The translations under genes and the position numbers were made by a program. From a virus: a stretch of 64,000 bases of DNA. The notes beneath the pieces were generated by a model, which was not told where the DNA came from, made no database searches, and saw only the letters and a program-made list of their open reading frames with translations. Positions 3,987 to 6,940 of this stretch are shown piece after piece. The number at the start of each line of letters is the position of its first letter. Position 1 is the stretch's first letter. Location of the stretch: the IMG/VR virus record IMGVR_UViG_3300045988_123611; one strand, given 5' to 3'.

Positions 3987-4368
3987 TTATACATCAATAT
4001 TGGCCCTTTCTGCGTTTAACTCAATGAAAGATTTACGAGGGCCAACTGATTCACCCATCAAATCCATAAATGTTTTATTTACAAGATTCATATCATCCAT
4101 TGTAATCTGTTTTAAGGTGCGAGTTTCTGGATTCATAACCAATTCCATTTCATGGGTGTCCATTTCTCCTACGTGTTTATCCAATATCACTATTGGCACT
4201 GACTATTTCTTCGCTCCGGCTAACGTATTAACTGCCATCATCACGCCTACCTTTTTGAAAGTATGTATCAATAATACTTTCTACTCCCCGACAAAGGGGA
4301 TAGTCGATACAGGATTAAACTACGATATTTTTCCAATTCTAATAACTCCATATATTTGTGAAAGAACC
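3987..4368 (-). CDS. Topo II large-subunit (GyrB) C-terminal segment, T4 gp60-like
   Basis: ...HVGEMDTHEMELVMNPETRTLKQITMDDMNLVNKTFMDLMGESVGPRKSFIELNAERANIDV matches the GyrB C-terminus (GEMNPEQLWETTMDP...EPRRAFIEENA...NIDI). Frame extends upstream through 3 in-frame TAG to an ATG near 4368. Confidence 0.55.
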
Positions 4369-4431
4369 ATATGTAAGTTTATTAGAATAATCTTTATAAA
4401 CTTCTCTTATATTTTCTCCATTTTTACGACG

Positions 4432-5012
4432 TAATCTTATTTGATAAACGTCTTGTTCAGTCATTTTAGAGCGTCCATTTTTACTTCCCTAATTAGAAGT
4501 ATTATGTTTATGAAAATTTTTATTTTCAATAGTGTATACTTCTGGCATAATATTTTTCCAAGTATCACCATTCCAAATTTTATGAAAACCAGATTCACCA
4601 ATTAAATTTTTGTAATCTTCATAAACTTCATTTTTTCTTTCTTGATTATTATAACGAATTCTAATATCAATAATGTCTTGTTTAGTTAATTTATGACTTG
4701 GATGACTTTCTTCAGCATTAAATTGGCCTCCAGGGGTCATATTATACTAATCAGGATAAGTATTATAATATTTTATATAATACTATTCTCTATCATTAAG
4801 TTTTTCCATAGAACATTCTTCTAATATTTCAAAAGAAAAATTATTTATTCCATATTCTATTATATCTTTATATAATTTTTTATTTTTTTCTCTATACCAA
4901 TTATATGATTTTTTATGTTCTCTAAAACGCTATTCTATTTGTGTACTTTGTCCTATATAAGATAAGTTATTTATTTTATTGGTTATTTTATAAATACCAA
5001 TCATTTTAATTA
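4432..5012 (-). CDS. GIY-YIG homing endonuclease (I-TevI-like) with C-terminal HTH DNA-binding domain
   Basis: MIGIYKITNKINNLSYIGQSTQIE(TAG)RFREHKK... gives GIY...YIG...R..EH. C-terminal KLTKQDIIDIRIRY...GDTWKNI is a NUMOD/sigma70-r4-like HTH. Three or more in-frame TAG. Lies between the two gyrB segments. Confidence 0.6.
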
Positions 5013-5155
5013 CCTCACTGATTATTAGTAAGATAATATCGTAGTTTTTCCCACGAGATTATCTCCGCTAATATTTAACGCTTATTCATTTCAGTTTTTC
5101 CTGAAATGTCCTAAATATTAGCGAGACTACCTCGTTAGCTGCCAACTGGGAAATT

Positions 5156-6940
5156 TTACCAATTCGCAACCCCGCCGATTAGCGGAAAAGTAGGTAAGGG
5201 CCAGACTTCCTCGTACCCTTTCATACGTCCCAATTCGAAAGATCGATTCATAGTTTTTCTGAATGTTTCAAGAGCCGCATCATCTTTGAGATATTTAATA
5301 TTTGTACCCCAAGTTGCTTTGTAAAGAGGAGGAACCGCTGCATAAATATAACCTTTTTCAATTAATTCAGGCGCAAACTTCCAAATAAATGTAAGAAACA
5401 AAATACGAATATGGCTACCATCAACATCGGCATCCGCTGTAATAATAATCTTACCATAACGTAATTTGGATTCATCCACAATTACTTTACCATCTTTAAC
5501 TTCAAGGCCAAAAGCATCAATCATCGCACTAATTTCTTTATTTCCTAACGCTTTGTGCAAATCTGTCTTTAAAGTATTAAGAATTTTACCTCTTACGGGT
5601 AAAACTGCTTGCGTATTGCGGTTGCGAGCTTCTTTAGTGGGGCCTTCCGCGGAACGACCTTCAACAATAAAAATTTCACATTCACTTCTATTTTTACTAT
5701 TGGCGTCGCTTAATGTGCCAGGTAAAATAGTTCTTTTTTTCGTATCAACTTTACGAACGGTTTCTTTAGCCTTTTTCGCTTTTTCGCGTGCCGCACGTGC
5801 CAACATTGCCTTATCTACAATAGCTTTAGCATCTTTTGGATTATTGTCAAGCCAAACTTTTAAATCTTTTGAGACAAGGCGTTGAACAATAGTTCTTGCT
5901 TCACTACTGGATAAAACATCTTTGGTTTGACCAGAAAAAACCGGGTCAGGCATAATAAATGAAAGAACAAGACTTAATCCTTCTTTAAGTTCTTCGCCAG
6001 TGATATTAGCATCTTTTTCTTTTAAAAGACCTTTATCACGAGCGTATTCATTAATAGAAGTAGTAAGTGCTGTTCTAAAACCGGTTAGATGTGTTCCACC
6101 ACTATTAGGAATTGAATTAGTATAAAGTTTATAAGTATCGCTATAGGTATCATTATACTCCATAGCAATTTTTACACCAATTCTATCTTCAATATTTTCA
6201 GTATAAAAAATTGAAGTAAGAGAAGTTTTATTGCTATTTAAATCTTTAATATAATCAAGAATACCATTTTTTGAAGTAATCTCTTCTTCTGGCTTATCAA
6301 GATAAGTAAAATGAAATACCATACCAGGAGAAAGATAAGCTAATTCTTGAATTTGTTTTCTTAAAGCATCATAATCAAGAAGAATACCTTCTTTAAAAAT
6401 GCTTTCATCTGGCAAAAATTTAACCCAGGTTCCGGTCTCTGTACCAGCCCATTTTTCTTCTTGATAATCTTTTAATTTTCCTTTTTCAAAAGACGCAACA
6501 GCATGTTTACCATCGCGAAAAGATGCAACTTGAAAATAACGAGAAAGAGCGTTAGTGGCTTTAGCGCCAACGCCGTTCATACCGCCAGATGTATTATATC
6601 CAGTTTTTCCATTACTGTCAAATTTTGCACCGGTATGAAGTTTAGTATAAATATTTACCAATGTTTCACTACCGTCTTTAGCTTTTCCAAAAGGAACACC
6701 ACGTCCATTGTCGCGGATTTCAACATAACCATCTTTAGATACTGAAATATCGCAACGAGTACAATGACCATTTAAATATTCATCAACCGCGTTTGAAATA
6801 ATTTCAAGAGTAATATGTTTAACTCCATCAGGTCCAGTAGAACCAATATACATACCTGGTCTAAGACGAATTGCTTCTATACCTTCAAGAGTTTTAATAT
6901 CTTTTACTCCATAAGAATCTAAATTAATTGTCGTTGCCAT
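5156..6940 (-). CDS. Topo II large subunit (GyrB-like ATPase + Toprim; T4 gp39-like), truncated at ...RMKGYEE
   Basis: GHKL ATPase N-terminus (PGMYIGSTG), Toprim EGRSAEG, DADVDGSHI. Ends 60-80 aa short of a full GyrB; the missing C-terminus is encoded at 3987..4368. Confidence 0.8.
   Translation of the reverse strand: MATTINLDSYGVKDIKTLEGIEAIRLRPGMYIGSTGPDGVKHITLEIISNAVDEYLNGHCTRCDISVSKDGYVEIRDNGRGVPFGKAKDGSETLVNIYTKLHTGAKFDSNGKTGYNTSGGMNGVGAKATNALSRYFQVASFRDGKHAVASFEKGKLKDYQEEKWAGTETGTWVKFLPDESIFKEGILLDYDALRKQIQELAYLSPGMVFHFTYLDKPEEEITSKNGILDYIKDLNSNKTSLTSIFYTENIEDRIGVKIAMEYNDTYSDTYKLYTNSIPNSGGTHLTGFRTALTTSINEYARDKGLLKEKDANITGEELKEGLSLVLSFIMPDPVFSGQTKDVLSSSEARTIVQRLVSKDLKVWLDNNPKDAKAIVDKAMLARAAREKAKKAKETVRKVDTKKRTILPGTLSDANSKNRSECEIFIVEGRSAEGPTKEARNRNTQAVLPVRGKILNTLKTDLHKALGNKEISAMIDAFGLEVKDGKVIVDESKLRYGKIIITADADVDGSHIRILFLTFIWKFAPELIEKGYIYAAVPPLYKATWGTNIKYLKDDAALETFRKTMNRSFELGRMKGYEEVWPLPTFPLIGGVANW

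Follow-up and report, generated by a model that had tools for sequence, protein, structure and literature searches.

A gyrB-like gene in the IMG/VR virus record IMGVR_UViG_3300045988_123611 (a stretch of 64,000 nucleotides (nt), here called the window) is interrupted by an insert that is very likely a mobile phage IA-type group I intron carrying a GIY-YIG homing endonuclease gene. The minus strand is the coding strand of every gene in this part of the window, and the insertion point falls inside the conserved R-x-K-G-L-G-E-M motif of the gyrB-like gene. The element has exact boundaries, is present in some relatives and absent from others, contains a covarying RNA structure and encodes an endonuclease domain with its catalytic residues in a frame that needs read-through of TAG codons. 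It is a new example of a well-known selfish element and does not overturn current understanding. No earlier report of an intron in a gyrase gene of a phage was found in the literature searched, which is a minor novelty. The parts of the locus are as follows.

5215..6940, minus strand: gyrB-like exon 1, codons 1-575 and the first base of Leu576, without an in-frame TAG
4172..5214, minus strand: predicted group I intron of 1,043 nt, starting with ACGAGG and ending in ...AACACG, with its terminal G at 4172
4315..5004, minus strand: GIY-YIG homing endonuclease gene, 229 codons and TAA, with TAG at codons 25, 74, 86, 172 and 222
3987..4171, minus strand: gyrB-like exon 2, the last two bases of Leu576 followed by GEMD...ANIDV and TAA

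The gyrB-like sequence is spread over two open reading frames (ORFs). The first (6940..5156, minus strand) encodes 594 amino acids (aa) with the Pfam domains HATPase_c, DNA_gyraseB and Toprim, and ends in ...ELGRMKG followed by 19 unrelated read-through codons (YEEVWPLPTFPLIGGVANW*) and TAA. The second lies approximately 1 kb downstream (4199..3987, minus strand), opens with a GTG at 4199 and matches the Pfam domain DNA_gyraseB_C (PF00986, E 8e-13). An initial annotation, made from the sequence alone, had proposed that a GyrB-like ORF is separated by about 1 kb from its C-terminus and had staked this on a resemblance of 3987..4199 to the GyrB C-terminus; both points hold. It had also described a KG-x-GE motif as duplicated on the two sides of the insert, but there is a single K-G-L-G-E, with the intron inserted inside its Leu codon (GGG U|UA GGA), and the "GYEE" that follows RMKG is intron sequence read in frame. 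When the exons are joined in silico, ...CGU AUG AAA GGG U and UA GGA GAA AUG GAC... together read RMKGLGEMD, and the predicted spliced junction is ...AUGAAAGGGU joined to UAGGAGAAAUGG... (5215 to 4171). The resulting 636-aa protein is identical at 632 of 636 positions, with no gaps, to P0001, an uninterrupted 636-aa protein from a cluster of 664 member sequences. It aligns through the junction with ...RYKGLGEMN... of E. coli GyrB and covers positions 6-641 of the 641 in the NCBIfam gyrase B profile in a single stretch. Standard-code gene calling would produce a shortened gyrB, a lone ORF of 70 aa and the endonuclease in several pieces at this locus, where the true products are predicted to be a GyrB-like protein of 636 aa and an endonuclease of 229 aa.

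The ends of the insert were located by comparison with uninterrupted homologues, as the initial annotation had suggested. Searching viral contigs with the in-silico spliced protein gave 69 loci, among them ten close relatives with an uninterrupted gene and gyrB-region DNA that is 94-99% identical (L001-L005, L012, L013, L044, L051 and L060). The alignment to these relatives runs up to 5217 and resumes at 4169, with four bases in between, and the relatives lack exactly 5214..4172. Their junction reads CGA AUG AAG GGU CUU GGA GAA, encoding RMKGLGE; in L001 the sequence at the insertion site is ...CGAATGAAGGGTCTTGGAGAA... / ...TTGGGCCGAATGAAGGGTCTTGGAGAAATGGAC....

The RNA structure was examined in 18 distinct homologous introns, from which variable loops were removed before alignment. 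These introns occupy the same gyrB site in relatives with 62-100% identical proteins and in some more distant ones. The following elements are proposed for the window copy, beginning from its 5' end.

5196..5206, minus strand: internal guide sequence GUCUG-GCCCUU, for P1 and P10 pairing
5189..5194, minus strand: P3 5' strand CCUACU, pairing with GGUAGG at 4246..4251
5138..5185, minus strand: hairpins A (5172..5185) and B (5138..5170), between P3 and J3/4, both covarying
5053..5135, minus strand: P4 (ACGAGG / UCUCGU) enclosing an extended P5 hairpin (5063..5125), with P4 invariant and paired in 18 of 18
4319..5045, minus strand: P6 stem, 5035..5045 (ACUACGAUAUU) with 4319..4329 (AAUAUCGUAGU), with the endonuclease gene in its loop
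4201..4305, minus strand: catalytic 3' core, containing P7, P7.1, an AGUAG linker, P7.2, P3' and P8
4300..4305 and 4201..4206, minus strand: P7 (GACUAU / AUAGUC), invariant
4286..4299, minus strand: P7.1, covarying
4258..4280, minus strand: P7.2, covarying
4246..4251, minus strand: P3', the 3' strand GGUAGG
4212..4245, minus strand: P8 with a kink-turn-like (k-turn-like) internal loop, covarying
4197..4199 and 4173..4175, minus strand: P9.0 (GUG / CAC), all three pairs covarying (RNAalifold)
4181..4196, minus strand: P9 hairpin, 100% paired, with 5 of 6 pairs covarying

A U stands before the 5' splice site, and the intron ends, as in all homologues, in G (4172). The guide sequence lies thirteen bases into the intron. 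In P1, GCCCUU pairs with the end of exon 1 (AAGGGU) in 100% of cases; two of its pairs covary (AU/GC and GC/AU) and a U.G wobble is found at the 5' splice site in 18 of 18 homologues, while P10, formed by GUCUG and the start of exon 2 (UAGG(C)), is 93% paired. P3 exhibits compensatory changes in 5 of 6 pairs with 99.1% of cells paired, and the same helix was obtained from RNAalifold. Fully compensatory variants of the P6 stem occur in L018, L045, L046, L056 and L065. The hairpin with a 13-base-pair (bp) stem that the initial annotation had pointed out (5130..5058) is real, with a predicted energy of -25.8 kcal/mol (z = -8.1), and corresponds to the extended P5; in the ORF-less intron of L018 a 19-nt hairpin takes its place. 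A first candidate for P4, UUUCCC/GGGAAA, was dropped; homologues show a variable local hairpin (hairpin B) at that position.

Taken over 15 helices, the 68 proposed pairs form standard pairs in 96.8% of 1,187 cells, versus 35-44% in slid controls in which the 3' partners were moved by 1-3 columns. Changes on both sides were found in 32 of the 68 pairs versus 6-11 in the slid controls, and none of 500 shuffles reached the observed values. RNAalifold, run without the proposed structure, recovered P1, P3, P4, P5, P7.1, P7.2, P8 and P9 and added P9.0. The window copy has standard pairs at every proposed position and its core strands are those of the family consensus. The td-like order of the core elements, together with the P7 strands, places the element among the phage IA-type introns. 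By eye, the P8 loop follows a k-turn pattern, with a covarying 3-bp stem, a 3-nt bulge, an invariant tandem GA/GA and GGC/GCC, and its 13-nt apical loop (AGUUAAUACGUUA) is nearly invariant, with two or three variable positions, among the 12 of the 18 aligned introns that share this P8 form.

Several observations weigh against a group I intron. P4 and P7 are invariant and draw their support from conservation, not from covariation. The order of the 5' helices is not that of a textbook intron: the P3 5' strand begins one base after P1 with no P2 between them, and two covarying hairpins stand between P3 and the J3/4 "UAA". The Rfam group I scan that the initial annotation had proposed gave no intron match for the window copy, either in 3800..5500 (E up to 10) or over the whole window at gathering thresholds. 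It did give matches to RF00028 in the ORF-less relatives L065 (33.5 bits, E 4e-7) and L018 (23.4 bits, E 5e-4), both below the gathering score of 50 bits. The RF00028 model is known to be weak on ORF-bearing and phage IA introns, and the result is taken as a limit of its sensitivity and not as evidence that the element lies outside the group. The missing match in the window copy is attributed to the insert of approximately 700 nt in the P6 loop, since the relatives without the ORF do match.

Three other explanations of the locus were weighed. The initial annotation had left open whether the insert is a group I intron or a split in the style of T4 genes 39/60, in which a free-standing endonuclease gene would have invaded gyrB, leaving two halves that are translated separately and assembled without RNA splicing. 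A GIY-YIG gene does stand between two gyrB fragments here, and the ORF that contains the downstream fragment opens with GTG (4199). That GTG, however, is one strand of P9.0 in a covarying RNA structure, and the approximately 350 nt of noncoding sequence flanking the endonuclease gene are conserved as paired helices with compensatory changes. The exons also join in frame within a codon to give an invariant motif, in a protein 99% identical to its uninterrupted homologues, and ORF-less versions of 263-287 nt persist at the same site, which a split caused by nothing but an endonuclease gene would not explain. Given the boundaries, the U and G at the ends, the guide sequence and the ribozyme core between the exons, a 39/60-style split is highly improbable and the intron is the part of the original proposal that stands.

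A decayed intron that no longer splices, leaving a gyrB pseudogene or a truncated protein, is also very unlikely. Splicing is so far deduced from sequence, and the window copy falls under every Rfam threshold, both of which are in keeping with decay. Against it stand the complete set of standard pairs and consensus core strands, two intact exons that are 99% identical to the uninterrupted alleles, and an endonuclease ORF that retains all of its catalytic residues; the insert in the P6 loop and the matches in the ORF-less relatives account for the missing Rfam hit. The probability of a sequencing or assembly artefact, either a frameshift or a chimeric join in a continuous gyrB, is negligible. 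The interruption is 1,043 nt long, so that correcting a simple frameshift does not yield the continuous GyrB ORF that the initial annotation had named as the outcome that would overturn it, and the insert recurs in the same arrangement at 70-97% identity in many independent contigs from different samples. A group II intron and an intein were considered and rejected.

The mobile group I intron reading leads to the following predicted course of splicing and spread. In the pre-mRNA, the end of exon 1 (AAGGGU) would pair with the guide GCCCUU to form P1, in which the U.G wobble marks the splice site, and a free guanosine in the P7 binding site would attack after U5215. The terminal G (4172) would then occupy the guanosine site while GUCUG of the guide keeps the first bases of exon 2 (UAGG) in place through P10, and ligation of the exons to ...AAA GGG UUA GGA GAA... 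would restore the 636-aa GyrB-like protein. In mixed infections, the endonuclease is expected to cut gyrB alleles that lack the intron, and repair from an intron-bearing copy would copy in the intron with neighbouring exon bases (homing). With five TAG codons in the endonuclease gene and none in gyrB, full-length enzyme would be made only once a suppressor transfer RNA (tRNA) with a CUA anticodon reads TAG as sense. The delay could keep ribosomes off the ribozyme early in infection.

The distribution of the element among the viral contigs is that of a mobile intron. Carriers of an intron at the same site are L006-L009, L023, L024, L042, L045-L047, L056-L059 and L069, and ORF-less versions are found at this gyrB site in L018 (287 nt) and L065 (263 nt). 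Alleles with the intron, without it and with an ORF-less intron are found side by side in contigs that are at least 95% identical over the gyrB region, as expected of a homing intron passing through its usual life cycle (PMC3984707). This natural series should be useful for studying homing and the loss of endonuclease genes in gut phages that have not been cultivated. Fixed synonymous differences between alleles with and without the intron are confined to approximately 14 nt around the junction (CGU AUG AAA GGG U|UA versus CGA AUG AAG GGU C|UU), and the polymorphisms beyond this distance are common to both. The differences at the junction fit either a short co-conversion tract or selection for P1/P10 pairing and cleavage resistance.

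Related introns also occupy the same site in gyrB-like genes that are far more divergent, and are found at two or three further positions in gyrB and in other genes. Further gyrB inserts are seen in the Toprim region of L053 and L054 (equivalent to approximately 5423 in the window), L068 (~5415) and L065 (upstream, ~1.7 kb); a related GIY-YIG ORF is present in one of these extra inserts, and another measures only 285 nt. From these inserts at other positions, gyrB appears to be a multi-site intron target in this phage group. Introns with a P7 - P7.1 - AGUAG - P7.2 core are also present in other genes of the viral contigs L076, L096, L124, L141, L142, L145, L148 and L171, with 3' exons that start UGUAG.... 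The 14-mer CCTGTATCGACTAT occurs at no fewer than 128 places in at least 120 viral contig stretches; among the matches listed, 24 are followed by a downstream P7' motif, and those without this motif are probably chance matches. In the window, a motif search found no second intron, and a match at 9124 is not accompanied by other core elements. A search of GenBank phage DNA with the whole locus gave weak matches to other GIY-YIG genes and to gyrB, and no cultured close relative; the same search with an ORF-less intron gave only short marginal matches, mostly to unannotated stretches of Enterococcus and Lactococcus phages.

The ORF in the P6 loop is open for its 229 codons only when its five in-frame TAG codons are read as sense. 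Its product matches the Pfam family GIY-YIG (PF01541) with 36.5 bits versus a cut-off of 22.6, and the N-terminal 90 residues match the catalytic domain of I-TevI (PDB 1MK0, E 9e-7), with the catalytic residues GIY3-5, YIG16-18, Arg26, His30, Glu73 and Asn88 aligned to 1MK0/1LN0. Over its full length, the protein matches phrog_7168, annotated as "homing endonuclease" (E 1e-36). The frame and length of the ORF are conserved in 15 homologues, again only with TAG as sense, and the positions of the TAG codons vary among them. The TAG-recoded, I-TevI-like GIY-YIG gene that the initial annotation had placed between the gyrB parts is therefore well founded, and a tRNA-CUA gene is present in the window as well. 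The C-terminal half of the endonuclease consists of two repeats of approximately 50 aa. Past residue 85 there is no Pfam match (E up to 10) and no PDB match to the I-TevI DNA-binding domain, so that these repeats are not regarded as an I-TevI-type DNA-binding region. The last eight codons of the gene overlap the P6 3' strand, and the following hairpin, kept in homologues with compensatory variation, lies upstream of its start.

5009..5037, minus strand: hairpin burying the Shine-Dalgarno sequence GAGG (5013..5016), -9.2 kcal/mol, z = -3.6

The tRNA that could read TAG was identified by ARAGORN and by the Rfam tRNA model (57.8 bits).

57237..57326, minus strand: suppressor tRNA with anticodon CUA

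Gln is the best candidate for the residue inserted at the endonuclease's TAG codons. The tRNA resembles tRNA-Gln in its U1.U72 mismatch and G73, and TAG interchanges with CAA/CAG at six positions within the endonuclease family. The picture is less clear in two respects: the variable arm of the tRNA, at approximately 17 nt, is like that of class II tRNAs (Ser, Leu, Tyr), and a wider tally of the residues aligned to TAG is spread over several amino acids, led by K, Q, N, L, T and E. Other TAG-containing genes in the window encode an endolysin (eight TAG), tail-like or tail-fibre-like proteins (five to eight), HNH nucleases and a radical SAM protein. The called coding regions of gyrA and gyrB have no TAG, and all of the long ORFs of the window terminate in TAA or TGA.

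The T4 td intron with its endonuclease I-TevI, of subgroup IA2, is among the closest known systems, and a T4-like td intron sequence was retrieved for direct comparison of the elements. Both are introns of the self-splicing type (splicing being predicted here) in a phage gene of DNA metabolism, and share the order P7 (GACUAU) - P7.1 - AGUAG - P7.2 - P3' - P8 - P7' (AUAGUC), an endonuclease gene in the P6 loop, a related catalytic domain and an endonuclease ribosome-binding site buried in a hairpin. The host gene differs, as td encodes thymidylate synthase. The td intron has the canonical P1-P2-P3 order, whereas here P2 is missing and two hairpins occupy the interval between P3 and J3/4; the P8 loop of the present intron is k-turn-like, and its P9 region is short (P9.0 and one hairpin, ~33 nt), with neither P9.1 nor P9.2. 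In place of the linker, zinc finger and helix-turn-helix of I-TevI, the endonuclease has its two repeats without a Pfam match, and unlike I-TevI its gene needs TAG read-through.

These differences bear on the subgroup. P7.1 and P7.2 between P7 and P3' are a feature of IA2 introns (PMC4227781) and are present. The extended domain 9 of that subgroup (P9.0, P9.1 and P9.2; PMC4227781) is reduced to a 3-bp P9.0 and one P9 hairpin, and the distance from P7' to the 3' splice site is 33 nt versus approximately 95 nt in td. Both td and the Rfam consensus have one or more peripheral hairpins between P1 and P3 (P2, and in the Rfam consensus also P2.1). With neither an extended P9 nor a P2 between P1 and P3, the element is labelled IA-type and not IA2; phage "IA2" introns are heterogeneous according to a recent survey (PMC11878797). 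The loop of hairpin A (UAUC) is complementary to the conserved P7.2 loop (GAUA), and the two loops change together at the UA/CG pair in L120 and L161 (UACC or UACU with GGUA). Tentatively, the intron and its relatives at the same gyrB site in many gut-phage contigs might represent a distinct, undescribed phage IA subtype, characterized by the missing P2, the hairpins between P3 and J3/4, a loop kissing P7.2, a k-turn-like P8 and a minimal domain 9, with a TAG code switch that would time splicing against translation of the ORF, although this combined proposal is rather doubtful. The atypical helix order, supported by covariation, may be of interest to specialists in RNA structure.

A comparable use of recoded stops has been described in "Agate" gut phages, in which an intron homing endonuclease gene rich in recoded stop codons lies in an early host gene that uses the standard code, and the in-frame stops were proposed to keep the endonuclease from being made before the late phase of infection (Borges et al., bioRxiv 10.1101/2021.08.26.457843). 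The two cases share a recoded group I intron endonuclease nested in a standard-code early gene. They differ in that TGA is recoded (to Trp) in the Agate phages and TAG here, and in that the preprint text leaves the host gene unnamed and presents no RNA structure or intron-minus alleles, both of which are described here. The present locus would be a second, TAG-based case, and its nested arrangement would allow the proposed timing role of the code switch to be tested within one transcript.

In T4, the type II topoisomerase gene 39/60 is likewise associated with a mobile endonuclease insert, mobA (with a gene 60 bypass), but its parts are translated separately without a ribozyme, whereas here a ribozyme with a guide sequence is predicted to join the exons. 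Group I introns are reported to be numerous in essential genes (terL, nrdD, DNA polymerase) of the huge "Jug" gut phages and of Bastillevirinae, where they frequently carry HNH or GIY-YIG genes, and splicing in the Jug phages is backed by metatranscriptome reads (PMC12880540, PMC11878797). Unlike the present case, these texts mention neither an intron in a gyrase or topoisomerase gene nor stop-codon recoding of an intron ORF.

Downstream of exon 2, the ATG of the next gene (3994) overlaps the gyrB stop at 3987..3997 on the minus strand (GAUGUAUAA), which suggests translational coupling of gyrB exon 2 with a small downstream ORF and an RNase H gene. A scan of 3900..7100 for promoters and terminators gave no excess over shuffled sequence, so that the endonuclease gene is not credited with an internal promoter of its own.

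Elsewhere in the window, the endolysin gene (8221..9522, minus strand; Phage_lysozyme2 and Amidase_2) is open only with its eight TAG codons as sense and is fragmented by a standard-code ORF finder. Four TAG-containing ORFs, all on the minus strand (27448..26657, 25078..24335, 38437..37871 and 60749..60153), have a common N-terminal motif, GxxFGxLTV...YWxCxCxCGN. One of these has a Pfam HNH domain at its C-terminus, and a second has an HNH-like end without a Pfam match. Of the remaining two, one gives a weak, sub-threshold match to DUF2726 and the other matches nothing in Pfam. All four resemble homing endonuclease genes of the free-standing kind, and some are situated between tRNA genes. The tRNA array identified by ARAGORN (37264..63854, minus strand) comprises at least 15 tRNA genes on one strand, and two additional tRNA-like sequences (58531..58603 and 59882..59956) were found by Rfam and not by ARAGORN. 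Inside this tRNA-rich region, Rfam also identified a RAGATH-33 RNA (RF03102) at 39606..39734 on the minus strand, with 124.5 bits versus a gathering score of 120.4.

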